From positions 1 through 34,442 of the forward strand of contig JAZAHK010000032.1 of NCBI GenBank assembly GCA_036231405.1: 34,442 nt of DNA. The letters are read 5' to 3'. Source of the stretch: Nitrospinota bacterium. Lineage in GTDB: Bacteria > UBA8248. The first letter of the stretch is position 1, and each line of letters begins with the position of its first letter. Both the position numbers and the translations under genes were made by a program. The notes beneath the pieces are model-generated. The model had not been told where the DNA came from and ran no database searches. It worked only from the letters and a program-made list of their open reading frames with translations. Shown here piece after piece: positions 87 through 18,252 of this stretch.

Positions 87-1058
87 TTAATCAATACCTT
101 GTATTTCCAGAAGAGTACTATCTAAACTTTCCTTGTCTTCAACATTGAAAACGGGGATATTTTTCAAAATTCTTTTATTCAACCCTGAAAGAACTTTCCC
201 AGGACCTACTTCAATGGCAGCAGAGATATCCTGATCTGCTAATGAACTCACAGAACTCTCCCACCTAACAGAAACACGCATCTGCTGCTTAAGTAACTTT
301 TTTACCTCTCGAGATTCTCTTACAAGTTTCCCGGTTACATTAGCGCAAATAGGGATCGTTGAAGAATTAAAGTTGGTTTCTTCTAAAACCTGACTCATTT
401 TTTCAGAGGCTTCAACAAGCAGAGAGCAATGGAACGGTGCTCCTACAGGAAGCATAACAGCTTTTTTAAAACCCGCTTCTCGCGCAATAGAACAAGCTTT
501 TTCGACTGATTTCCTCTCGCCAGAAAGAACGTACTGTCCTGGGGCATTATAGTTTGCAATCTCTAAAACTCCTTCAATTTCTTCGCATAATTGTTCTGCC
601 TTGTGTAATTCTCCTCCTAGGAGAGCTAACATTGCACCCCCATCAATGGGGACTGCTTCATGCATCAAACGACCCCTTTCCTTGACCAAGAGTAGAGCAG
701 TACGAAAGTCAAAAACTCCCCCAGCAATCATAGAGGCATATTCTCCAAGACTATGACCAAGTGCAACGCTAGGATAGATACCTGCACGTTGCAACAGGAT
801 CATTCCTATATAACTATGCACTAAAATTGCAGGTTGAGTATTAATTGTTTGAGTCAAAGTTTCTGTTGGTCCATCAAAGCTCAATTTGGCAATATTGAAA
901 CCAAGTATCTCATTTGCTTCATCATAAATCTCTGTTGCAATATCGAAATTTTCATAAAACGAATTACCCATTCCAACATATTGCGAACCTTGTCCAGGAA
1001 ATAAGAAAGCTATCTTTCTTATTTTAGAATCTTCAAATGAAATGTTCTCTGTAAACAT
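87..1058 (-). CDS. fabD: Malonyl-CoA:ACP transacylase
   Basis: FLFPGQGSQ N-terminal motif, TQPAI, GHSLGEY catalytic Ser motif, APFHC, EVGPGKVL; follows fabH. Confidence 0.97.
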   Translation of the reverse strand: MFTENISFEDSKIRKIAFLFPGQGSQYVGMGNSFYENFDIATEIYDEANEILGFNIAKLSFDGPTETLTQTINTQPAILVHSYIGMILLQRAGIYPSVALGHSLGEYASMIAGGVFDFRTALLLVKERGRLMHEAVPIDGGAMLALLGGELHKAEQLCEEIEGVLEIANYNAPGQYVLSGERKSVEKACSIAREAGFKKAVMLPVGAPFHCSLLVEASEKMSQVLEETNFNSSTIPICANVTGKLVRESREVKKLLKQQMRVSVRWESSVSSLADQDISAAIEVGPGKVLSGLNKRILKNIPVFNVEDKESLDSTLLEIQGID

Positions 1059-1091
1059 AAAAAGTTTATCAATTAATGAATTAAAAAAACT

Positions 1092-2072
1092 CTACCATTT
1101 TATTAACGAAGCTCCCCACGTTAAACCGCCTCCAAAGGCTGCCAAAAGTATTTTATCACCCTCTTTAATTTTTCCATCTCTAACCTCTTCATCCAATGCT
1201 ACTGGAATTGTAGCAGCAGACATATTTGCGTACTTCTTTATAGTTACAACAATTTTTTCCATCGACAAATCTAATCGCTTTGCAATGGCTTCAATAATTC
1301 TTATGTTAGCTTGATGGGGTATAAAAAGATCAAGATCGCTTAGAGACATTTGATTTTTTTCCAAAATCTCCAGAGACACATCTGCAAAATTCTTTACGGC
1401 TGTTTTAAAAACACCTTGCCCATTCATTTTAAGAAGGTGTGCTTTAGATTTCACATCTTCCTCTGAGATAGGAGTTAATTTAGAACCTCCACCAACAATA
1501 AGTATTAATTCTCCATCGCGACCATTGCTATAAGTAATCGAATCTAAAATTCCAGAATCATCCTCTGATTGTCCAATTACGACCGCTCCCGCACCATCTC
1601 CCCATAAAATGCAATTCCCTCGGTCAGTCCAGTCCGCAACTCTTGTCATTATATCTGCACCAACTAACAGAACATTTTTAGCCAAACCTGACCTGATATA
1701 TGCATCTGAGCACTGCAAGCCATAAACAAAACCAGAACAAGCAGCATTAAGATCAAATGCAGGACAATTCCCAATATTAAGATTAGCCTGCAACCAGCAG
1801 GCAGCAGAAGGACACATAGAATCAGGAGTAATAGTCGAAAAAATGACAAGATCTATTTCACTTGCCTGTAAACCTGCAGCTTGTATGGCATTTTCTGCAG
1901 CTGGAAGAGACAACTCCGATACTCCAACACCTTTTGGTGCAATTCTTCTTTCAGAAATACCAGTCCGTTCAAGAATCCACTCATCGGTTGTGTCAACGAT
2001 TTTTTCAATTTGCTTGTTAGTTAGGACTTCTTCGGGAACATAAGAACCGGTCCCTATTATCTTTGATCTCAA
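1092..2072 (-). CDS. fabH: 3-oxoacyl-ACP synthase III
   Basis: DLNAACSGF (Cys), PHQANIRI (His), YANMSAA (Asn), GDGAGA, FGGGLTWG. Start placed at in-frame TTG 2072 (LRSKIIGTG); track start is 2129. Confidence 0.95.
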   Translation of the reverse strand: MRSKIIGTGSYVPEEVLTNKQIEKIVDTTDEWILERTGISERRIAPKGVGVSELSLPAAENAIQAAGLQASEIDLVIFSTITPDSMCPSAACWLQANLNIGNCPAFDLNAACSGFVYGLQCSDAYIRSGLAKNVLLVGADIMTRVADWTDRGNCILWGDGAGAVVIGQSEDDSGILDSITYSNGRDGELILIVGGGSKLTPISEEDVKSKAHLLKMNGQGVFKTAVKNFADVSLEILEKNQMSLSDLDLFIPHQANIRIIEAIAKRLDLSMEKIVVTIKKYANMSAATIPVALDEEVRDGKIKEGDKILLAAFGGGLTWGASLIKW

Positions 2073-2134
2073 AATAGATTGACCAACCTTGTGGGCGAAG
2101 TTAAAAAAACGAGTGGCGATATTAACCAAACTTC

Positions 2135-3226
2135 TTAAATATCTTTTTTATCCGATTCATCTCCAGAAAAAATTCCACCCCTAATTTGATTCCAAAGACG
2201 CCAGCCTACATCAGAAGTACTAGAACGGTAGATTTCACTATATCTAGCAATATTTTCTTGTAACTTTGAATTCAAATCTTTCTTTACAAGTTCGTTCGTT
2301 GTTCGAATAGCGTTCTTAATAGTCTTAGCATCACTCCTACCGTGACCTATAGTACAAAGCCCATTAAGACCAAGTAATGGAGCGGCACCGTATTCAGAGT
2401 AATCAGTTTTCCTACGCATCGTATTGATCCCATCACGAAGGAAGAGATAACCTATCTTTCCTTTGACTGACCCATTGAATTCGGTCCTCAAAAGACTAGA
2501 TATCATACTACTAACACTTTCACTAACTTTCAATGCGACATTACCTGAAAAACCATCAGATACGACAACGTCTGAAATTCCTTGAAAAATGGTGCTACCT
2601 TCAATATTCCCAATAAAATTCAGATCTGATTTTGAAAAAAAATCATGAGAACTAATTAGCGCGTCGGTTCCCTTGGACTCTTCACTCCCAATATTGAGTA
2701 GTCCGATCTTGGGATTTTTCTTGCCAAAAAGTACTTCGGAATAAACTGATCCCATTATCCCAAATTGAAAAATATGCTGAGCTCTTGGATTTAAATTAGC
2801 TCCAACATCAACCATAACAGCAAATCCTTTTAAAGTTGGGATAACTGCTGCTATCGCAGGACGCTGGACATCTCTCATTTTTTTAAGGACGAAAAGCGCT
2901 GCAGTAAAGGCTCCACCTGTATCACCAGCGGTAAATACTGCAGATGCTTCGCCTCTTTTCACTAATTCCAATGCAACTCTTATAGATGAATCTTGTTTTT
3001 CCTTTGCGGACTTCGTGGGGGATTCTCCCATTTCTACAACCTGCTTTGCCTCACGTATATCAAAATTAAAATCAGTAATTCCGAGTCGATCCAGTTCACT
3101 TTGTATTCTGTCTTGCAAACCAACCAAGATCGTTTCTATTCGAAACTCTTTCAATGCAAGATAAGCACCCTCAACAACATCTCTAGGAGCACTATCACCA
3201 CCCATCGCGTCTACGGCTATTTTCAT
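2135..3226 (-). CDS. plsX: Phosphate acyltransferase PlsX
   Basis: MKIAVDAMGGD, RPAIA, DGFSGNVALK, YGAAPLLG, HGRS; rpmF-plsX-fabH synteny. Confidence 0.97.
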   Translation of the reverse strand: MKIAVDAMGGDSAPRDVVEGAYLALKEFRIETILVGLQDRIQSELDRLGITDFNFDIREAKQVVEMGESPTKSAKEKQDSSIRVALELVKRGEASAVFTAGDTGGAFTAALFVLKKMRDVQRPAIAAVIPTLKGFAVMVDVGANLNPRAQHIFQFGIMGSVYSEVLFGKKNPKIGLLNIGSEESKGTDALISSHDFFSKSDLNFIGNIEGSTIFQGISDVVVSDGFSGNVALKVSESVSSMISSLLRTEFNGSVKGKIGYLFLRDGINTMRRKTDYSEYGAAPLLGLNGLCTIGHGRSDAKTIKNAIRTTNELVKKDLNSKLQENIARYSEIYRSSTSDVGWRLWNQIRGGIFSGDESDKKDI

Positions 3227-4157: not shown

Positions 4158-4670
4158 TTAAATATTTTTTTTAAATCTATCCTTCAATTTTGAATAACCT
4201 ACTGCGGTATGACTAAAACGTTGAACTTCATCTTCCTTTAAATGCCGGACATATTTTGCAGGAACACCCATCCATAAAGTTCCTGGTTCTATAACTTTAT
4301 ATTCAGGGACAAGCGAACCTGCACCTACAACAGAACCTTCTCCAACATCGACTCCATTGAGTATGGTTGCCCCCATAGCAACAAGAGCACCATCCTTCAC
4401 ATCACAACCGTGAACGATAGCATTATGCCCTATAGAAACATTATCGCCTAAAATACAAGAATGCTTGTCAGTTTCTATATGAAGAATCGAACCATCCTGT
4501 ATATTAGTATTTTTCCCAACCCTAATAGGCATATTGTCCCCGCGAAGAACGCAGTTATACCAAACACTACTATTTTCCCCAATTTCAACATCTCCAATAA
4601 TGACAGCCGTTTCTGCCAACCAAACAGTAGGGTGGATTTTGGGGATTTTCCCTTCAAAAGGTATAATCAT
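4158..4670 (-). CDS. Gamma-carbonic anhydrase family (YrdA/CaiE-like) hexapeptide-repeat protein
   Basis: IIGDVEIG, VLRGD, TNIQDGSILH, IGHNAIVHGC (three His ligands), GVPAK. Confidence 0.92.
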   Translation of the reverse strand: MIIPFEGKIPKIHPTVWLAETAVIIGDVEIGENSSVWYNCVLRGDNMPIRVGKNTNIQDGSILHIETDKHSCILGDNVSIGHNAIVHGCDVKDGALVAMGATILNGVDVGEGSVVGAGSLVPEYKVIEPGTLWMGVPAKYVRHLKEDEVQRFSHTAVGYSKLKDRFKKNI

Positions 4671-11542: not shown

Positions 11543-12457
11543 ATGTCTAAAAAAGGTCATATTACAATTGTTGAAGTTGGGACGAGAGATGGGATGCAAA
11601 TTGAGAAAGAGTTCATCCCAACTGAACAGAAGATTAAAATTGTAAATTTAATTTCAGATTCTGGTATCCAGAGAATTGAAGTAACTAGTTTCGTAAGTCC
11701 AAAACATGTTCCACAATTATCAGATGCTAAGGAAGTAATGGACAATATAAAAAGAAAAGTTGGAGTTGAATACGAAGCACTTATCCCGAATACGATGGGC
11801 ATGGAACGAGCGTTAGAATGCGATTTAGACAGAATTAGTCTGTTTGTGTCAAGTAGTGAAAAGTTTAACAATAAAAATTTAAGGGCTTCCCGTTCAGAAA
11901 TGATTAAAAAATCAAAAGAAGTTTCCGAAATTGCTATTAGAAACAAAATTAAAGTACGTGGGGCAGTAGTTACTGCATTCGGTTGTCCGTACGAAGGAAA
12001 AATCCCATTTAAATCTTTGGAATGGGTGGTTAAAGAATACCTTGAAATGGGTTGTGATGAAATATGCTTGGCCGATACAGTAGGGATGTCAAATCCCATA
12101 CATGTAAAAGAAATAACAGAAAAGCTAAGGAACATTGCACCGGATGCGAATTATTCTCTTCACTTTCATAACACCAGAGGTTTAGGACTTGCGAACCTTT
12201 TCGCGGGATTAGAAATTGGAATCAAAACTTTTGATTCTTCGATTGGTGGTCTTGGTGGATGTCCATTCGCGCCAAAAGCAACAGGAAATATAAGTACTGA
12301 AGATGCAGTAAATATGCTCCATGAAATGGGATATAGCACTAACATTAACCTAAATAAAATATTTAAGGCGGTCTCCTCACTAGAAAAAATTTTATTACGA
12401 CAATTACCTGGGCAATTATTTCACGCTGGCGTACCAAAATGGAAAACTAAGAAATAA
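11543..12457 (+). CDS. Hydroxymethylglutaryl-CoA lyase family (DRE-TIM) enzyme
   Basis: EVGTRDGMQ, TSFVSPK.VPQL, AFGCPYEG, LADTVG, LHFHNTRG, GGCPFAP.ATGN. Confidence 0.9.
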   Translation: MSKKGHITIVEVGTRDGMQIEKEFIPTEQKIKIVNLISDSGIQRIEVTSFVSPKHVPQLSDAKEVMDNIKRKVGVEYEALIPNTMGMERALECDLDRISLFVSSSEKFNNKNLRASRSEMIKKSKEVSEIAIRNKIKVRGAVVTAFGCPYEGKIPFKSLEWVVKEYLEMGCDEICLADTVGMSNPIHVKEITEKLRNIAPDANYSLHFHNTRGLGLANLFAGLEIGIKTFDSSIGGLGGCPFAPKATGNISTEDAVNMLHEMGYSTNINLNKIFKAVSSLEKILLRQLPGQLFHAGVPKWKTKK

Positions 12458-12479: not shown

Positions 12480-12509
12480 TTGTTAAAATTAAAAAAAATT
12501 GCATACAAT
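12480..12509 (+). promoter_or_regulatory. Putative promoter with overlapping GntR-type operator palindrome ATTGCATACAAT (12498-12509)
   Basis: TTGTTA, 18 nt, TACAAT; the 12-bp near-perfect palindrome covers the -10; the operon ends in a GntR gene. Confidence 0.55.
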
Positions 12510-12544: not shown

Positions 12545-14089
12545 ATGGAAGATAGGTTAGAAGAACTCAGAAAGATTCTAGGCGACGCCTCTTTGAAAGG
12601 AGGTAGAGCATCGGAAAAAAGACAACATCAACAAGGAAAGTTGACCGCAAGAGAAAGAATTTCTTTTCTACTTGATGAAGATAGTTTTTCTGAATTAGGT
12701 TTGTTAATGGAATCTCGCTCCTCTGATTTTGGCATGGATTCTAAGCGTAGTGCAGGAGATGGTGTCATAACTGGAAGTGGAAAAATATCCGGCCAAAAGG
12801 TTTTTGTTGCTGCACAAGATTTCGGAACACTCGGTGGATCGCTAGGAGAAATTCATGCACAGAAAATCATTCGCATACAAAAACTGGCTTTAAAAATGGG
12901 AGTTCCAATAATTTTAATTCTGGATTCAGGGGGAGCAAGAATACAAGAAGGAGTTTTATCCCTACATGGGTATGCACAAATTTTCAGAATGAACACCTTA
13001 TCTTCAGGTGTCATTCCACAGATTTCGATTATCCTTGGACCATGCGCTGGAGGGGCAGTTTATTCACCAGCTATTACAGATTTCATTTTCATGGTTGAGG
13101 GTCTTAGTAAGATGTTTATTACTGGGCCCGACGTGATAAAATCTGTCACGGGAGAGGAAGTTACATTTGAAGATTTGGGCGGTGCTGACGTACATTCTAA
13201 AAAAAGTGGAAATGCACATTTCACATCAAAGGATGAGGAAGGTTGTTTTAATCTAGTTAAAAAATTGTTAGCCTTTTTACCATCGAACAATATAGATAAA
13301 TGTCCCGTCGCAGAAATCCCTAATTCCCCACCTGATGAGAATCCCATACTAGAAAAAATAGTACCTACATCTTCTACAGATTCTTATGATGTAAGAGAAA
13401 TAATTTCTAATATTTTTGATAGTGGAGATTTCCTTGAAGTACAATCTGAATTTGCCAAAAATATTGTCGTTGGTTTCGCGAGACTAAGAGGTAATACAGT
13501 CGGTATTGTCGCCAATCAACCTGCTCATCTCGCAGGAGTTTTGGATATTGACAGTTCAGACAAATTGGCCCGTTTTGTTCGTTTTTCTGACTCATTCAAT
13601 ATTCCCATTATTAATTTTGTAGATGTCCCAGGATATTTACCTGGGACTCAACAAGAATATGGAGGTGTAATTCGCCATGGAGCAAAAGTGCTTTATGCTT
13701 ATAGCGAAGCAACAGTCCCGAAAATTGCAATTATTCTTCGTAAGAGTTATGGAGGAGCATATATCGCCCTCAGTGGTTTGGGTCTTGGGTATGACCATGT
13801 GTTCGCTTTTCCTACAGCTGAAATTGCAGTAATGGGACCAGAGGGCGCGTCAAATATTATTTTTCGTCAAGAGATTGAAAAATCCATTGACCCTGAAAAA
13901 ACAAGACAAGAAAAAATACAAAATTATAAAGATATGTTTGCTAAACCTTATACTGCAGCAAAACAGGGTTTTGTAGACACAATAATTGAACCACGTTTTG
14001 CTCGTCAAGAACTCGCTAATTGCCTAGAAATACTTTCATTAAAAAGAGAAAATCGTCCGAATAAAAAACATGGAAATATCCCTCTTTAA
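12545..14089 (+). CDS. mmdA: Acyl-CoA carboxyltransferase; alpha subunit of a (methyl)malonyl-CoA decarboxylase-type Na+ pump
   Basis: GKLTARERI, DSGGARIQEG, GPCAGGAVYSPA, DVPGYLPG, IRHGAK, KKHGNIPL; context with delta, gamma and beta genes. Confidence 0.85.
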   Translation: MEDRLEELRKILGDASLKGGRASEKRQHQQGKLTARERISFLLDEDSFSELGLLMESRSSDFGMDSKRSAGDGVITGSGKISGQKVFVAAQDFGTLGGSLGEIHAQKIIRIQKLALKMGVPIILILDSGGARIQEGVLSLHGYAQIFRMNTLSSGVIPQISIILGPCAGGAVYSPAITDFIFMVEGLSKMFITGPDVIKSVTGEEVTFEDLGGADVHSKKSGNAHFTSKDEEGCFNLVKKLLAFLPSNNIDKCPVAEIPNSPPDENPILEKIVPTSSTDSYDVREIISNIFDSGDFLEVQSEFAKNIVVGFARLRGNTVGIVANQPAHLAGVLDIDSSDKLARFVRFSDSFNIPIINFVDVPGYLPGTQQEYGGVIRHGAKVLYAYSEATVPKIAIILRKSYGGAYIALSGLGLGYDHVFAFPTAEIAVMGPEGASNIIFRQEIEKSIDPEKTRQEKIQNYKDMFAKPYTAAKQGFVDTIIEPRFARQELANCLEILSLKRENRPNKKHGNIPL

Positions 14090-14110
14090 TTTTTTAAAGG
14101 ATTAGATGAA

Positions 14111-14401
14111 ATGTACCCTCTACTAACACAAGGATTAAAGTTAACGATTATAGGAACAACCTTTGTTTTCATATCGCTCTTTTTCCTGTGTTTGATCATA
14201 AAAATGCTTAGTTTTTTTCTAAAAGAGGGAGAAATAAAAGAAGAGGAAACAAAAGATTTAGATACAGATCTAGTTATTTCTGCATCTGTAGCATATTTTT
14301 TAGAGCAATCAAACGACAAAATATATATTCCAAAGATTTATAGAGAAGACTCAAATTGGCTACTTGAATCTAGGATTAATCCCATTACAACTGAGGGATA
14401 A
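14111..14401 (+). CDS. mmdD: OadG/MmdD-family membrane anchor (delta) subunit
   Basis: Single N-terminal TM (GLKLTIIGTTFVFISLFFL), LVISASVA helix, C-terminal SNW...R; lies between alpha and the biotin carrier. Confidence 0.75.
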   Translation: MYPLLTQGLKLTIIGTTFVFISLFFLCLIIKMLSFFLKEGEIKEEETKDLDTDLVISASVAYFLEQSNDKIYIPKIYREDSNWLLESRINPITTEG

Positions 14402-14402
14402 A

Positions 14403-14780
14403 TTGAAAAAATTTTCGTTAAGAATAAACAACAAAGATTACAAAATTGAAGCAGTACGACTAGAAAGCCCAGGAAAATTAAAAATTAACGTAAACGGTGT
14501 TGACCATGTCGTGCAGATTGAAGATGAGACAACACCCTCAGTTCAAAACCTAAGTTCTTCTCATGCCTCCAAAAATATTCGGGCACCACTTCCTGGAGAG
14601 GTCCTTTCTATAGAAGTATCAGTCGGACAAACGGTAACTGCAGGAACAAAATTATTAATACTTGAAGCCATGAAAATGGAAAATATTATTACTGCGGAAG
14701 CAGATGGAAAAGTTTCGGCTATTTTTATAAACAAAGGAGATAAAGTAGAAGCAGGACAGGAGTTAATTAAAATAGAATGA
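14403..14780 (+). CDS. mmdC: Biotin carboxyl carrier (gamma) subunit
   Basis: IRAPLPG, ILEAMKMEN biotinylation motif; TTG start at 14403 behind GAGGGA (track start 14364). Confidence 0.88.
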   Translation: MKKFSLRINNKDYKIEAVRLESPGKLKINVNGVDHVVQIEDETTPSVQNLSSSHASKNIRAPLPGEVLSIEVSVGQTVTAGTKLLILEAMKMENIITAEADGKVSAIFINKGDKVEAGQELIKIE

Positions 14781-15901
14781 AAGATTTAGTTACTTCTTTA
14801 AACGATTTCTTTGTGCTATCTGGAATTTACTCTCTTAGTTTGGGTAGTTTCCTGATGATACTTATTGCGTGCATTTTGCTTTTTTTAGCAATTTCTAAGG
14901 GATTCGAACCTCTTTTACTAATTCCAATAGGATTTGGAATGTTATTATCAAATCTTCCAAACTCTGACATCTTCTCAGAAGGTGGGTTAATAAATTTCTT
15001 TTACTTTGGAGTCAAATTTGGAATATTTCCGCCTCTAATTTTTATGGGAATTGGCGCACTTACAGATTTCAGTCCTCTTATATCAAATCCTAAAACTATA
15101 CTTCTTGGAGCGGCGGCACAATTTGGAATTTTTACAACACTCTTAGGTAGTATTTATTTAGGCTTTAATCTATCTCAATCTGCAGCAATTGGAATAATAG
15201 GAGGTGCTGATGGTCCCACAGCTATTTACACCGCGTCAAAATTAGCCCCAGAATTAATTGGACCGATTGCTGTTGCAGCCTACAGTTATATGGCTCTTGT
15301 CCCAGTAATCCAGCCTCCAATAATAAAAGCTTTAACCACTCGAGAAGAACGCTCTCGTGAAATGGAAGTTCCACCACCTACTAATCAGAAAATCTTAATT
15401 TTATTTCCAATTATCACAACTATATTTACAGGTTTATTACTTCCATCTGCTATTCCTTTAATCGGAATGTTGATGTTAGGAAATCTATTTCGAGAATCAC
15501 GCGTGGTCGAAAGACTCGTTAAAACAACAGGAAACTCACTTCTTAATATAATCACTATTTTTCTCGGTGTGTCTGTGGGAGCATCTATGACGTCAGAGAG
15601 TTTCCTGAAATGGGAAACAATAGGGATTTTACTTTTGGGACTATTTGCGTTTGCAATTGGAACTGCGACAGGTGTTATTTTTGGGAAATTAATGTCTTTC
15701 TTCAGCAAAACCCCTATTAATCCAATGATTGGAGCAGCAGGAGTAAGTGCTGTGCCAATGTCAGCTAGAGTTGTACAGAAAATAGGATTGGATGAAAATC
15801 CGAAGAATTTTCTACTTATGCACGCAATGGGACCAAATGTTGCAGGTGTAATTGGTTCTGCAATAGCAGCTGGGTTGTTGATATCTCTGATACAAAACTA
15901 A
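14777..15901 (+). CDS. mmdB: Na+-translocating carboxybiotin decarboxylase beta subunit (OadB/MmdB/GcdB family)
   Basis: FEPLLLIPIGFG, GIIGGADGPT, AAYSYMALVP, NPMIGAAGVSAVPMSAR, HAMGPNVAGVIGS; ATGA overlap with gamma. Confidence 0.93.
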   Translation: MKDLVTSLNDFFVLSGIYSLSLGSFLMILIACILLFLAISKGFEPLLLIPIGFGMLLSNLPNSDIFSEGGLINFFYFGVKFGIFPPLIFMGIGALTDFSPLISNPKTILLGAAAQFGIFTTLLGSIYLGFNLSQSAAIGIIGGADGPTAIYTASKLAPELIGPIAVAAYSYMALVPVIQPPIIKALTTREERSREMEVPPPTNQKILILFPIITTIFTGLLLPSAIPLIGMLMLGNLFRESRVVERLVKTTGNSLLNIITIFLGVSVGASMTSESFLKWETIGILLLGLFAFAIGTATGVIFGKLMSFFSKTPINPMIGAAGVSAVPMSARVVQKIGLDENPKNFLLMHAMGPNVAGVIGSAIAAGLLISLIQN

Positions 15902-15913
15902 GGGAATTGACTA

Positions 15914-17104
15914 ATGAGTGCTCCACTAAAAGACATTAAAATCTTAGATCTAACCAGAATTCTTGCAGGTCCATATTGCACGATGATGCTCGGAGATATG
16001 GGTGCAGAAATTATAAAAGTAGAAAATCCGAAAAATGGAGACGATACACGAGGTTGGGGACCACCCTTCCTAAACGGAGTAAGCACTTATTTTATTTCGG
16101 TCAATAGAAATAAAAAAAGCATAACATTGAACTTAAAACATGTTGAAGGAAAAAAAATCCTCAACAAACTAATAAAAGAGTGTGATGTTTTGGTGGAAAA
16201 TTTTCGTCCCGGCACATTAGAGAGACTCGGCTTCCCATGGACTGAGATTCAGAAAATTAATGAAAAAATCATTTTTGCATCGGTTTCTGGATTTGGACAA
16301 ACGGGTCCTCGTAAAAACGAACCTGGGTTTGATGTAGTTATTCAGGGGGAAGGAGGTATTATGAGCATAACAGGGGAACCTGACGGACCTCCCACAAAAG
16401 TAGGTGCTTCGATTGGAGATATCACCGCTGGAATGCTAGCTGCTCAAGGGATACTCCTAGCACTTTACAATCGAGAGAAAACTGGCAAGGGACAGATGGT
16501 CGATATAAGTATGTTAGATGGTCAAATTTCGTTGCTAACATATCATGCAAATGCTTTTTTCGCGACAGGCAAAATCCCAAACAGAAGAGGTAATAGACAT
16601 CCGTCAATTACGCCATATGAGACTTATAAATGTAGAAATGGTTTCTTTAATTTGGGTGTGGGGAATGACTCTCTTTGGATAAAATTCTGTGATTCATTAG
16701 AACTAGACGAATTAAAAGAAGATAAACGCTTTCAAATAAATGCGGACAGAGTCAAGAACAGAACAGAATTAGAAGAAATTCTTATCCCTTTTTTCGAAAA
16801 TTTTGAACTGGAAAAAATAATCAATATACTTAGGGATGCTGGAATTCCATGTGGAGCAATCAATAACTTAGAAAACGCACTCAATAACCCACAGGTCGTG
16901 GCAAGAGAAATGACACAAGAAATTGAAATTCCAGAAGTTGGAAAAACTAAAATAACTGGCATACCTATAAAAATGTCTGAAACTCCAGGATCTATCAGGA
17001 TTCCTCCACCCGGCTTAGGAGAGCATACGACCCAGATTCTTAAAAATTATCTTTATTTTTCTGATATAGAAATAAAAAACCTACGAGAGAAAAACGTAAT
17101 ATAA
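15914..17104 (+). CDS. Family III CoA-transferase (CaiB/BaiF/Frc family)
   Basis: LDLTRILAGP, GAEIIKVE, NRNKKS, DVLVENFRPG, SGFGQTGP, SIGDITAG catalytic Asp, PPGLGEHT. Confidence 0.95.
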   Translation: MSAPLKDIKILDLTRILAGPYCTMMLGDMGAEIIKVENPKNGDDTRGWGPPFLNGVSTYFISVNRNKKSITLNLKHVEGKKILNKLIKECDVLVENFRPGTLERLGFPWTEIQKINEKIIFASVSGFGQTGPRKNEPGFDVVIQGEGGIMSITGEPDGPPTKVGASIGDITAGMLAAQGILLALYNREKTGKGQMVDISMLDGQISLLTYHANAFFATGKIPNRRGNRHPSITPYETYKCRNGFFNLGVGNDSLWIKFCDSLELDELKEDKRFQINADRVKNRTELEEILIPFFENFELEKIINILRDAGIPCGAINNLENALNNPQVVAREMTQEIEIPEVGKTKITGIPIKMSETPGSIRIPPPGLGEHTTQILKNYLYFSDIEIKNLREKNVI

Positions 17105-17116
17105 AGGAAAATAGTT

Positions 17117-17788
17117 TTGTTTAGTCCAACAAGAATAAATAAACCCAAATCCTTAAGTAAAATTGTTGTTGAGAAAATCAAAGATTCTATTCTAAATGGT
17201 AGTCTCAAGCCCGGTACAAAATTAATTGAGACACAATTGACAAATTCGTTGGGAGTAAGTCGAACTCCGCTTAGAGAAGCTTTTCGGGAACTTGCTGTGG
17301 AAGGCTATATCATTATTTATCCTCATAAGGGTGCCTTTGTAACAAAAATAACCAAAGAAGAAATAAAAGATCTTTATATGATTACTAGCGTACTAGAAGG
17401 GTTAGCAACAAGATTAGCAACACCCCTCTTGACTCTCGGGAAAAACAGGAAACATTTAGAGAAATTATTAGAAGAACTAAGAATTTTCGAACAATCTAGT
17501 GAAGTTAGTAAATACTGGGAAACCAATCAATTGTTCCACCAATTTATCACTAATTCATGTAAAAACGAAAAATTAAAAATTGTTATCAATAATCTTCGCA
17601 GACAAATTTTAAAAACGAGAATCATAACTTTACAAGTTCCTGGGAGATTAACCTCATCGATGGAAGAACATGAAAAAATACTTGAATTCATTCTTAAAAA
17701 TGAAGGAGGGAAGGCAGAGAAAATGGTTATTAAGCACCTCGAATTGCAAGGGAAAATTCTGTACGACTTAACCGACAAACCTGAGTAA
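17117..17788 (+). CDS. GntR family transcriptional regulator (FadR subfamily, FCD domain)
   Basis: LKPGTKLIE..L...LGVSRTPLREA wHTH; LEGLA, NQLFH, EEHEKI, H ligands; TTG start behind AAGGA. Confidence 0.93.
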   Translation: MFSPTRINKPKSLSKIVVEKIKDSILNGSLKPGTKLIETQLTNSLGVSRTPLREAFRELAVEGYIIIYPHKGAFVTKITKEEIKDLYMITSVLEGLATRLATPLLTLGKNRKHLEKLLEELRIFEQSSEVSKYWETNQLFHQFITNSCKNEKLKIVINNLRRQILKTRIITLQVPGRLTSSMEEHEKILEFILKNEGGKAEKMVIKHLELQGKILYDLTDKPE

Positions 17789-17803: not shown

Positions 17804-18211
17804 CTAAGACTTCATAATGAATGTGCTTCGTGCCTCTGCAACCAATTTTTCATCCTTAATTCTAAATCCCAGTCCACGCAAGAAAACAAATGATTTTTTT
17901 TTGTTTTCTACAAACCCTTCAAATCTTAATGGAGTAAAAATTTCGACTGGAGACCTGTAGCGAATTTCACTCCTTGCAGAATAACATTTAACACCATTCA
18001 GAAACAAACAATTCGCCATGACATCATCTAAAATTGAAAAAAGGATTCCTCCATGAAGGATATTGTCGTAACCCTGATGTCTTTTATCTGGAGTAAATTC
18101 AGCTCTACATACCTTCCCATCCAAGCTGAATTTGATTCGTAAACCAAAAGAATTATTTGAACCACAAACAAAACAATTATCAGCCATTCCTATTGTATTC
18201 TGAACATTCAT
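17804..18211 (-). CDS. PaaI-like hotdog-fold acyl-CoA thioesterase
   Basis: CFVCG..N..GL, HQGY..ILHGG.....LDDVM, IRYRSPV; start uncertain (18223, 18211 or 18187). Confidence 0.85.
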   Translation of the reverse strand: MNVQNTIGMADNCFVCGSNNSFGLRIKFSLDGKVCRAEFTPDKRHQGYDNILHGGILFSILDDVMANCLFLNGVKCYSARSEIRYRSPVEIFTPLRFEGFVENKKKSFVFLRGLGFRIKDEKLVAEARSTFIMKS

Positions 18212-18221
18212 ATTTTTGACC

Positions 18222-18252
18222 AAAAAAAGGGAGAGACATTTTTGCCTCTCCC
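18222..18252 (-). terminator. Rho-independent terminator of the ribosomal protein cluster
   Basis: Minus strand GGGAGAGGCA-AAAA-TGTCTCTCCC (10-bp stem, one G-U) followed by T7, 18 nt after the rplQ stop. Confidence 0.9.

Follow-up and report, generated by a model that had tools for sequence, protein, structure and literature searches.

We analysed a window of 34,442 nt, the whole stretch of DNA considered here, from a Nitrospinota genome (contig JAZAHK010000032.1, the source genome below). Six genes on the plus strand follow one another in the order alpha, delta, gamma, beta, CoA-transferase and GntR regulator, with gaps of 21, 1, -4, 12 and 12 nt (Table 1). The gap of 1 nt between delta and gamma presupposes that the start codon of gamma is the TTG in position 14403, preceded by GAGGGA. 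The motifs GADGPT, AYSY and GVSAVP were all found in beta and AMKM in the translation of gamma. The original prediction had given this arrangement, with the same gaps and motifs, and it was borne out by the list of open reading frames and by the family matches.

Table 1. Genes and candidate regulatory features in and around the operon (window positions).
Feature	Positions	Strand	Basis
HMG-CoA lyase-family gene, 304 aa	11543-12457	+	NF004283 353 bits, cut-off 246
Promoter-like site before alpha (TTGTTA, 18 nt, TACAAT)	12480-12509	+	consensus scan
Candidate operator ATTGCATACAATATAC, near-palindromic core TTGYATRCAA	12498-12513	no strand	overlaps -10 region
alpha, acyl-CoA carboxyltransferase of PccB/MmdA/12S type, 514 aa	12545-14089	+	PF01039 Carboxyl_trans 612 bits
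delta, small membrane anchor, 96 aa	14111-14401	+	PF04277 OAD_gamma 28.4 bits, cut-off 27
gamma, biotin carboxyl carrier with AMKM motif	14403-14780 (alternative TTG start 14364)	+	PF00364 Biotin_lipoyl 69 bits
beta, Na+-translocating carboxybiotin decarboxylase subunit, 374 aa	14777-15901	+	PF03977 OAD_beta 516 bits; TIGR01109 494 bits, cut-off 191
Family III CoA-transferase, SUGCT/YfdE-like, 396 aa	15914-17104	+	PF02515 CoA_transf_3 441 bits
GntR-family regulator with FCD domain, 223 aa	17117-17788	+	PF00392 and PF07729
4HBT-fold thioesterase, 139 aa, convergent	17804-18223	-	PF03061 25 bits

Among solved homologues, alpha scored highest with PccB of T. maritima (676 bits), followed by 12S (592), PccB (581), MCC beta (238) and GcdA (99-113); its match to the mmdA model TIGR01117 (771 bits) lies under the cut-off of 999, and that of delta to TIGR01195 (27.5 bits) under the cut-off of 36. 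The top solved homologue of the CoA-transferase is the human succinate-hydroxymethylglutarate CoA-transferase (E 7e-102), with a formyl-CoA transferase and YfdE next, and its Asp169 matches an Asp invariant in all five aligned homologues. Judged by sequence, the operon is a predicted Na+-translocating biotin complex in the mmdADCB gene order, joined by a CoA-transferase of family III and a regulator of the GntR/FCD type. The family matches thus support the Mmd-type Na+ pump that had been predicted, with its co-oriented transferase and regulator.

The operon has conserved neighbours on both sides. The HMG-CoA lyase gene lies 87 nt 5' of alpha, syntenic with the operon but upstream of its promoter. 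HMG-CoA lyases rank first among its solved homologues (E 3e-76), and its RDG, HxH and GGCP motifs align with theirs. In all orthologous loci that extend far enough, this gene precedes alpha and the thioesterase gene follows GntR. The thioesterase has no NCBIfam match, and it is a conserved neighbour of uncertain membership in the system.

The orthologous group comprises 27 loci, with CoA-transferase identities of 65-85% (for L078, 77% over a partial match). HMG-CoA lyase, alpha, gamma, beta, CoA-transferase and, as the final gene of the set, GntR occur in identical order in 22 loci; the other five end at contig ends, and their visible genes are all compatible with this order. The linkage of pump, CoA-transferase and GntR that had been proposed is therefore conserved across Nitrospinota. 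A full-length alpha orthologue (612-660 bits) was found in 45 of 49 genomes of the phylum and fragments in two more, and beta is present as a single copy in 47, including the source genome, and lies about 2 kb from alpha in every coordinate comparison made.

Upstream of alpha, the -35-like and -10-like blocks are kept in loci of the same genus, and TTGACT plus the operator is found in more distant genera; the consensus scan that located the promoter is weak alone, as it gave fewer sites than in shuffles. Exact sites for the candidate operator number 25 in 21 of the 49 genomes, compared to none for the reversed control pattern, and 19 of these sites are at most about 130 nt 5' of alpha. We infer that the GntR/FCD protein probably binds this site. 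The source genome holds exactly two perfect copies. The second has on one side a gene for an OadA/PycB-like transferase that lacks a biotin domain (NF006761 495 bits, cut-off 402) and on the other a TAXI-TRAP transporter, which points to a small regulon and ties the OadA/PycB-like enzyme to the biotin carrier of the operon. The HMG-CoA lyase gene, the operator and the regulon had all been missed by the original prediction.

Ile407 of alpha aligns with position 422 of PccB, where Asp presumably restricts PccB/AccB enzymes to propionyl-CoA and Ile admits acetyl-CoA. The equivalent residue in 18 Nitrospinota orthologues is Ile in 16, Val in two and Asp in none. This position fits acetyl-CoA as a putative substrate.

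Absences were called from six-frame HMM searches with a prefilter, which detected biotin carboxylase in 13 of 14 control genomes. In a PF01039 search of the 49 genomes, alpha was the only PccB-type acyl-CoA carboxyltransferase found, and no AccD-type match appeared anywhere. Biotin carboxylase was found in only 28 genomes and in none of the remaining 21, closed genomes among them. Sixteen copies sit in frames of 1157-1189 aa that also hold a pyruvate-carboxylase domain and five adjoin a second carboxyltransferase, of which the one tested resembles MCC beta (769 bits to 3u9r); a second biotin carboxylase able to serve alpha was shown in none of the 49 genomes. Five genomes free of biotin carboxylase (G026, G037, G038, G009 and G010; 95-100% complete, one or two contigs) were checked directly. 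With a BC-BCCP protein as query, the only matches in them were gamma of the operon, carbamoyl-phosphate synthase and lipoyl domains, and gamma is their only biotin protein. FabD and FabH, encoded in the window at 87-2129, were present in five of five genomes tested, and BirA in all 31 genomes searched. The phylum showed no other route to malonyl-CoA: MatC-type carriers and MatB-type ligases were each detected in none of the 49 genomes. The original prediction had also stated that mutase and epimerase are lacking from the window. Within its annotated part (1-22411) neither was found, nor was a metabolite transporter, but the absence does not extend to the genomes: an acyl-CoA mutase and an epimerase-like gene (above cut-off in 20) occur in all 49 genomes, the source genome included.

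Our tentative reading, drawn from comparative genomics throughout and with a probability of roughly 0.45, is that the operon encodes a reversible carboxyl hub acting mainly as an acetyl-/propionyl-CoA carboxylase that is driven by Na+ or works by transcarboxylation. The complex shares the architecture of methylmalonyl-CoA decarboxylase, but we would read it as a reversible hub and not as a one-way decarboxylase. Alpha, the delta anchor, the biotin carrier gamma and the beta pump would form a membrane-bound, biotin-dependent, Na+-coupled acyl-CoA carboxyltransferase complex, in which Na+ inflow from sea water would pay for the loading of CO2 onto the biotin of gamma by beta. Alternatively, methylmalonyl-CoA may serve as carboxyl donor, or oxaloacetate where an OadA/5S-like transferase is also encoded, as in the source genome. 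Alpha would then carboxylate acetyl-CoA to malonyl-CoA for FabD and FabH, and propionyl-CoA to methylmalonyl-CoA, which epimerase and mutase would convert to succinyl-CoA. The CoA-transferase may shuttle CoA between succinyl-, acetyl- or malonyl-CoA and free malonate, methylmalonate, hydroxymethylglutarate or acetoacetate, feeding or draining the same acyl-CoA pool without ATP, and HMG-CoA would be split by the neighbouring lyase. The GntR/FCD protein would repress the operon at the conserved candidate operator in response to a presumed effector. That the carboxylating direction is needed is suggested by the sole PccB-type carboxyltransferase, by the sole biotin protein of the five genomes without biotin carboxylase and by the presence of FabD and FabH. 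Na+-driven carboxylation, which had been named only as an alternative to decarboxylation, is therefore favoured over decarboxylation as the main reading. In 1984 both Na+ pumps were reportedly reversed, with carboxylation of pyruvate and of acetyl-CoA. A 2026 survey sets about -46 kJ for the entry of two Na+ against +31.5 kJ for pyruvate carboxylation.

The original prediction saw here a closed catabolic cycle of two enzymes, in which the CoA-transferase would move CoA from the product acyl-CoA onto free malonate, methylmalonate or a similar dicarboxylate, and the pump would decarboxylate the resulting thioester and export Na+, under substrate induction through GntR. The chemistry is plausible. 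It is consistent with a CoA-transferase and a regulator within one operon under a conserved operator, with the TAXI-TRAP transporter at the second operator copy, with Ile or Val at the specificity position of alpha, which also fits malonyl-CoA, and with the similarity of the transferase to YfdE, which we take to be an acetyl-CoA:oxalate CoA-transferase. Moreover, relatives of the transferase in other phyla (47-54% identity) adjoin alpha-like carboxyltransferases and carboxylate transporters, most clearly in L042, a Vicinamibacterales MAG with a MatC-like carrier, CoA-transferase, alpha and beta together; L066 combines alpha, TAXI-TRAP and two CoA-transferases, and L043 a CoA-transferase, alpha, a second CoA-transferase and an MFS transporter. 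A review table has an entry for malonate CoA-transferase, EC 2.8.3.3, and gives malonyl-CoA as CoA donor for EC 2.8.3.13, to which the closest solved homologue of our transferase belongs (PMC8085960). In Nitrospinota such a cycle has less support and is unlikely, since MatC and MatB are missing, no locus has a transporter within the operon, and the ubiquitous mutase and epimerase-like genes mean that the pump need not rely on free malonates. On its own it would also leave 21 genomes without a source of malonyl-CoA unless malonate were always available. We consider it very unlikely that the operon serves the classical succinate-to-propionate pathway as in Propionigenium, whose known users are strict anaerobic fermenters with a CoA-transferase of a different family. 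The transferase would convert succinate to succinyl-CoA with propionyl-CoA as donor, mutase and epimerase would yield (S)-methylmalonyl-CoA, and the pump would decarboxylate it and export Na+. The pathway as such is described in the same review (PMC8085960). The mmdADCB order, the mutase and epimerase-like genes and the use of succinyl-CoA by the closest solved homologue of the transferase agree with this, but the many acyl-CoA dehydrogenases (18 matches in the source genome, 21-24 in three relatives) should yield propionyl-CoA rather than consume succinate, and the malonyl-CoA gap stays.

For N. gracilis, a reversed oxaloacetate decarboxylase Na+ pump that carboxylates pyruvate in place of pyruvate carboxylase has been proposed, and the pump was reported from every Nitrospinae genome examined at the time (PMC3578206, PMC5029188). 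The OadA/PycB-like transferase downstream of the second perfect operator would suit this proposal. However, beta is accompanied in every genome by a transferase of the acyl-CoA type, and the PYC_OADA domain occurs in 23 of the 49 genomes, 16 times in full-length ATP-dependent pyruvate carboxylases and only seven times in OadA/5S-like proteins. An oxaloacetate role can thus be no more than an extra in a few lineages, and as the main function it is highly improbable. Two-subunit carboxylases built from BC-BCCP and PccB-type proteins are common, and alpha of the source genome could pair in this way with a 573-aa BC-BCCP protein (C38:35497-37218; G+C 0.382, typical of this genome) as an ordinary ATP-driven acyl-CoA carboxylase, so that the pump would only have to remove surplus carboxybiotin or (methyl)malonyl-CoA. 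We find this very doubtful, although the possible pairing counts against our reading. The BC-BCCP gene is located at the end of a contig and has glycosyltransferase genes as neighbours; with pyruvate carboxylase as its best NCBIfam match (633 bits), it could equally join the OadA/PycB-like protein in a split pyruvate carboxylase. Moreover, the other three genomes of its genus (90-97% complete) yielded no biotin carboxylase, and the 21 genomes lacking it throughout the phylum would be left unexplained.

Other observations also weigh against a mainly carboxylating hub. A repressor-controlled operon with a CoA-transferase resembles a substrate-induced catabolic unit rather than a housekeeping one, and the carboxylate transporters beside the transferase relatives in other phyla fit the decarboxylating direction. 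By a rough estimate, the CO2 levels of sea water would place reversal near equilibrium. Our reading gives the HMG-CoA lyase no clear role in genomes that have neither MCC nor HMG-CoA synthase. In addition, genera that have an MCC-type second carboxyltransferase with its own biotin carboxylase also keep the operon, so its role is not only to replace a missing carboxylase. As many of these marine Nitrospinota have no other carboxylase of this kind, the operon may well use the Na+ gradient of the sea, and not ATP, for lipid building blocks.

All six genes that the original prediction had placed in the operon, namely alpha (carboxyltransferase), delta (anchor), gamma (biotin carrier), beta (Na+ pump), a family III CoA-transferase and a GntR regulator, were found at the predicted positions and matched the families assigned to them, delta only narrowly. 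The 1-nt gap between delta and gamma was likewise recovered, with gamma starting from a TTG at 14403, and the motifs read in beta and gamma are all present in the translations. We take the Asp, Tyr and Ser of the beta motifs to be the functional residues. The regulator reached no NCBIfam equivalog in the profile search. Absent from the prediction was an HMG-CoA lyase-family gene upstream of alpha. Its Arg-Asp, His-x-His and Cys-in-GGCP motifs align with those of solved bacterial and human lyases, and these residues presumably have the catalytic roles. On the other side of the operon, the thioesterase-fold gene is probably transcribed on its own, because a strong terminator-like hairpin follows rplQ. 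The fabD/fabH/plsX block (87-3226) is located about 9 kb from the operon, fabD and fabH encoding malonyl-CoA consumers; for closed relatives the distance between alpha and these two genes is about 25 kb (G026). The genome assembly comprises 2.09 Mb in 48 contigs and is 92% complete.

Coordinates of the operon, its neighbours and related features. Positions without a prefix are those of the window; C31 and C38 are other contigs of the same genome, G018, G046 and G048 are compared Nitrospinota genomes, and L090 and L091 are loci around homologues.
Feature	Position	Strand	Remarks
fabD	87-1058	-	left end of the window
fabH	1092-2129	-	left end of the window
plsX	2135-3226	-	left end of the window
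gamma-carbonic-anhydrase/CaiE/PaaY-like hexapeptide-repeat protein	4158-4670	-	between fab genes and operon; 184 bits, below cut-off 250
HMG-CoA lyase-family gene	11543-12457		87 nt upstream of alpha; NF004283 353 bits, cut-off 246
candidate operator of the GntR protein, form in this genome	12498-12513		between lyase and alpha; ATTGYATRCAATATAC
alpha	12545-14089	+	Carboxyl_trans PF01039 612 bits; TIGR01117 mmdA 771 bits over the full length, cut-off 999
delta	14111-14401	+	OAD_gamma PF04277 28.4 bits, cut-off 27; TIGR01195 27.5 bits, below cut-off 36
gamma, biotin carrier	14403-14780	+	PF00364 69 bits; AMKM present
beta	14777-15901	+	OAD_beta; TIGR01109 494 bits, cut-off 191; GADGPT, AYSY and GVSAVP in translation
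CoA-transferase	15914-17104	+	CoA_transf_3 PF02515 441 bits, model positions 1-366 of 366
regulator	17117-17788	+	GntR PF00392 59 bits; FCD PF07729 68 bits
thioesterase-fold gene	17804-18223	-	directly downstream of operon; then rplQ, rpoA
terminator-like hairpin	18229-18252	-	10 pairs and T-run, after rplQ
OadA/PycB-like carboxyltransferase	C31:8237-9805	-	no biotin domain; divergent from TAXI-TRAP transporter
second perfect operator copy	C31:9814-9829
TAXI-TRAP transporter	C31:9925-13642	+	binding protein and fused permease
BC-BCCP (biotin carboxylase-biotin carrier) fusion	C38:35497-37218	-	573 aa; contig end, glycosyltransferase genes adjoining, unlinked to operon
citrate synthase II/2-methylcitrate synthase	L090 (G046:C24) 678-1892
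citrate synthase II/2-methylcitrate synthase	L091 (G048:C12) ~1194-2409
split beta	G018:C1:2452224-2453266		two frames side by side, matching the model at 2-189 and 187-348

The synteny of pump, CoA-transferase and GntR genes, which the original prediction had proposed to search for, was confirmed. When the proteins of the window were compared by tblastn with 80 loci, 27 were taken as orthologous (CoA-transferase identity of 65-85%; 77% over a partial match in locus L078) and 53 as non-orthologous. In 22 of the 27 orthologous loci the lyase, alpha, gamma, beta, CoA-transferase and GntR genes were found in the same order, followed by the genes for the thioesterase, L17 and rpoA. The remaining five are interrupted by contig ends, one being labelled Tectomicrobia. 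In distant members unrelated genes are inserted before and after the lyase gene, which is thus a conserved neighbour and not clearly part of the transcription unit. Extra genes in the clusters of relatives (enolase-superfamily, DUF429, alanine dehydrogenase) gave no clue to a pathway. Nitrospinota also harbour a second CoA-transferase paralogue (~51% identity) in a conserved block of the F420-biosynthesis type, present in locus L051 and about 20 similar loci, with CofG/CofH-like radical SAM, CofD-like, FrhB-like, amidase and shikimate dehydrogenase genes; these surroundings were uninformative on the operon. In the single-contig relative G018, which has a full-length pyruvate carboxylase, beta is split into two adjacent frames; either the gene is broken or frameshifted, or the sequence contains an error.

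The gap between the lyase gene and alpha harbours a 16-nt element with a near-palindromic core, ATTG(C/T)AT(A/G)CAATATAC, as well as a promoter-like site. The promoter and terminator scan returned fewer sites than shuffled sequences, and its sites carry weight only together with conservation. The element is retained across genera despite very different base composition. Its exact pattern occurs 25 times in 21 of the 49 genomes, and 19 of these sites are within ~130 nt upstream of alpha; the reversed control pattern did not occur in any of the 49. We regard the element as a candidate operator of the operon's own GntR protein. The sole other perfect copy in the window's genome is located between the OadA/PycB-like gene and the TAXI-TRAP transporter, while in two genomes of the same genus a second perfect copy is found just upstream of a citrate synthase II/2-methylcitrate synthase gene (TIGR01800, 465 bits). 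The assembly of the window's genome yielded no homologue of the latter gene. The genes adjoining these second copies suggest that the regulator controls a small regulon at the acetyl-/propionyl-CoA and oxaloacetate node.

Against solved structures, alpha scored 676 bits with Thermotoga PccB, 625 with Sulfolobus "MmdA", 592 with the 12S transcarboxylase subunit and 581 with Streptomyces PccB. Judged by these scores, alpha belongs with the enzymes acting on malonyl-/methylmalonyl-CoA. An identity as glutaconyl-CoA decarboxylase was rejected, as the GcdA structures reached only 99-113 bits. That alpha is the beta subunit of methylcrotonyl-CoA carboxylase (MCC), forming a leucine cluster with the lyase, is unlikely given 238 bits for MCC beta versus 580-676 for the PccB type; a genuine MCC-beta-like gene is separate from alpha in some genera. 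Ile407 of alpha aligns with PccB position 422, at which 16 of the 18 Nitrospinota orthologues aligned have Ile and two have Val. We assume that Asp at this position of PccB/AccB restricts the enzyme to propionyl-CoA and that a hydrophobic residue admits acetyl-CoA. For the CoA-transferase, the top solved homologue is human succinate-hydroxymethylglutarate CoA-transferase (SUGCT; E 7e-102), followed by formyl-CoA transferase and YfdE. Its Asp169 aligns with the Asp of SUGCT, the formyl-CoA transferase 10uh, YfdE and the CaiB/BaiF-family protein 4ed9, presumably the catalytic residue of family III enzymes. Since the protein stayed under every NCBIfam CoA-transferase cut-off (best NF052585, 368 versus 750 bits), the family score leaves its substrate specificity open.

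Genome content was compared in 49 Nitrospinota genomes with a completeness of at least 85%. The original prediction had argued from missing methylmalonyl-CoA mutase and epimerase genes, and this absence holds for the window. It does not hold for the genome, where a mutase-type large subunit is encoded on contig C25 and an epimerase-like protein on C48, nor for the phylum, since both were found in 49 of 49 genomes (the epimerase-like gene above cut-off in 20). This genome context changes how the operon is to be read. Fatty-acid synthesis is taught as beginning with an ATP-dependent acetyl-CoA carboxylase. In contrast to this textbook picture, the Carboxyl_trans search of the 49 genomes gave no AccD-type match and no biotin carboxylase (BC) was found in 21 of them, yet FabD and FabH (5/5 genomes tested), BirA (31/31 genomes searched, including that of the window) and a single biotin enzyme coupled to a Na+ pump are kept. 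Alpha is the only PccB-type carboxyltransferase, with one full-length orthologue in 45 of the 49 genomes and fragments in two. Beta is single copy in 47 and lies ~2 kb from alpha wherever coordinates were compared. The operon contains no BC partner for alpha.

BC was present in 28 genomes, never in more than one copy per genome. Sixteen copies are inside frames of 1157-1189 aa that also hold a pyruvate-carboxylase domain, and five share their contig with an adjacent second carboxyltransferase, of which the one typed is MCC-beta-like with a separate carrier. The second carboxyltransferase of G048, adjoined by a TPR protein gene, had no solved homologue at E <= 1e-100. Genomes in which BC was missing include five that are 95-100% complete: G026, G038 and G009 consist of a single contig, G037 and G010 of two. 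A search of these five with a BC-BCCP protein revealed no BC and matched only the operon gamma, carbamoyl-phosphate synthase and lipoyl domains. The PYC_OADA domain is absent from 26 of the 49 genomes and an OadA/5S-like gene is present in just seven; the sole PYC_OADA gene of the window's genome is on a different contig from beta and encodes no biotin domain. MatC-type carriers were found in 0/49 genomes, as were MatB-type ligases, a model for which no control genome was positive either. As probes of the host's lifestyle, the NarG-family search gave 0/49 at E <= 1e-30, and the Citrate_bind search gave only weak matches in three of five genomes. In the control genome of Thermotoga maritima, OAD_beta, Carboxyl_trans and fabD were matched and Biotin_carb_C was not, the same pattern as in the BC-less Nitrospinota. 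FabH gave no match in this control. Among solved proteins, the PccB of T. maritima is closest to alpha.

Apart from the operon complex, no means of carboxylating acetyl-CoA and propionyl-CoA is visible in these bacteria. For this reason our leading reading, to which we assign a probability of about 0.45, is that it may act as a reversible carboxyl hub, used mainly for carboxylation. The genome content, with BC missing in many genomes and a sole PccB-type carboxyltransferase, argues that the carboxylating direction is needed. Carboxybiotin on gamma would be formed by beta, driven by Na+ entering the cell, or else would come from another donor on a carboxyltransferase. Alpha would use it to make malonyl-CoA for lipid synthesis, and methylmalonyl-CoA en route to succinyl-CoA. 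In the window's genome oxaloacetate could also serve as carboxyl source for this carrier through the co-regulated OadA/5S-like enzyme, a transcarboxylase route. A demand for propionyl-CoA disposal is plausible; this genome has 18 acyl-CoA dehydrogenase and seven enoyl-CoA hydratase matches. The respective numbers are 21-24 and 18-19 in G026, G037 and G038, and 0 and 2 in G010. One would not expect such an abundance of these enzymes in a lineage known for chemolithoautotrophy. We infer from sequence in which direction the complex runs, what its substrates are, which effector is sensed and which protein binds the operator.

The original prediction favoured a malonate/alkylmalonate cycle, in which the transferase loads the acid, the pump decarboxylates it and Na+ is exported. 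The chemistry is sound, and both the repressor control of the operon and a co-regulated TRAP transporter in the window's genome fit a catabolic role. Outside the phylum, the cycle is best supported by a Vicinamibacterales MAG with a MatC-like carrier, CoA-transferase, alpha and beta in a row, and in other MAGs alpha-like genes occur together with transporters of the TRAP or MFS type and with one or two such transferases. The same logic is known from the Oxalobacter formyl-CoA transferase/oxalyl-CoA decarboxylase cycle, where a family III transferase takes CoA off the product of decarboxylation and hands it to the next dicarboxylate, and Frc and YfdE are among the best solved homologues of our transferase; the Oxalobacter decarboxylase, however, is a soluble thiamine enzyme and energy is conserved via an antiporter, not a biotin Na+ pump. 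A same-strand alpha-like gene was present in just five of the 53 non-orthologous loci, and the cycle leaves the source of malonyl-CoA in BC-less genomes unexplained. We consider it unlikely; if its direction holds, the operon would provide candidate genes for a malonate-type decarboxylation cycle. Even less probable is the classical succinate-to-propionate route, with which the mutase and epimerase-like genes now known in the genome would agree. These genes are a likeness to the Na+-translocating methylmalonyl-CoA decarboxylase (EC 7.2.4.3; mmdADCB of Propionigenium modestum and Veillonella parvula), as are the four types of subunit and their shared order, the PccB-type alpha, the AMKM carrier and the Asp/Tyr/Ser motifs of beta. 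The Nitrospinota operon differs in an alpha that stays under the curated mmdA cut-off, in the co-transcribed CoA-transferase and GntR genes, and in hosts labelled Nitrospinaceae/Nitrospinota, not fermenters. Moreover, many hosts have no other biotin enzyme, and this speaks for operation in reverse.

In the accessible parts of Lücker 2013 (PMC3578206) and Ngugi 2015 (PMC5029188), the Nitrospina pump is a reversed oxaloacetate decarboxylase (OadGAB), and its reversal by the marine Na+ gradient is the same idea as here. The beta and delta/gamma-type membrane subunits are indeed alike. The carboxyltransferase adjoining beta, however, is of the acyl-CoA type and not OadA, and the published reading fits at most the seven of 49 genomes with an OadA-like gene, which is unlinked; we judge it improbable for this operon. 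The subunits meant by the authors may be named in the gene tables of both papers. Similarly doubtful is an ordinary ATP-driven enzyme formed in the window's genome by alpha and the orphan BC-BCCP. Such a gene exists at a contig end, but no BC was found in the three other genomes of the genus. The carboxyl hub also has parallels in the Propionibacterium methylmalonyl-CoA:pyruvate transcarboxylase (12S, 5S, 1.3S), given the resemblance of alpha to 12S and, in the window's genome, a 5S/OadA-like protein lacking a biotin domain and a small carrier; in contrast, the operon includes a membrane pump subunit, and most of the phylum lacks a 5S-like gene. As far as the available portions of the sources go, both Na+ pumps were reported in 1984 to run in reverse, a 2026 survey tabulates reversal energetics for pyruvate, and transcarboxylase also converts acetyl-CoA and oxaloacetate to malonyl-CoA and pyruvate (PMC8085960).

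A conserved HMG-CoA lyase gene lies beside the operon. BC-less genomes lack MCC, and HMG-CoA synthase was found in 0/31 genomes searched. As a lead, the only visible HMG-CoA source in BC-less genomes would be the SUGCT-like enzyme, acting by loading free hydroxymethylglutarate with CoA. An intact-looking lyase gene adjoins the operon and the transferase keeps the Asp of SUGCT, although here the transferase and lyase genes are set apart by the operon promoter and the pump genes. Malonyl-CoA is tabulated as donor for the SUGCT class (EC 2.8.3.13) in the accessible part of a review (PMC8085960).

The operon consists of known families in an Mmd architecture. Three features appear not to have been described before: the constant association with genes for a family III CoA-transferase and for a GntR regulator with its candidate operator, the phylum-wide conservation, and the status as sole PccB-type carboxyltransferase and, in the genomes checked, sole biotin enzyme. 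Literature searches, with subscription journals mostly outside their coverage, returned nothing relevant on a Na+-driven or BC-free malonyl-CoA route and nothing on HMG-CoA lyase in Nitrospinae. Whichever direction holds, the conserved operator and regulator offer a direct experimental handle, and the operon data change the reading of "oxaloacetate decarboxylase" in Nitrospina metabolic reconstructions.

The main marine nitrite oxidisers belong to the phylum Nitrospinota. Should the pump operate backwards in vivo, it would allow energy-saving carboxylation in energy-limited cells and give a physiological role to a reversal that, to our knowledge, has so far been known only from proteoliposomes. 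More tentatively, marine Nitrospinota might make all their malonyl-CoA and methylmalonyl-CoA without ATP, with the sea-water Na+ gradient driving a reversed Mmd-type pump as the cell's only acetyl-/propionyl-CoA carboxylase. If true, this would be the first natural acetyl-CoA carboxylase driven by sodium motive force, and it could help to explain the tie of this group to saline habitats.
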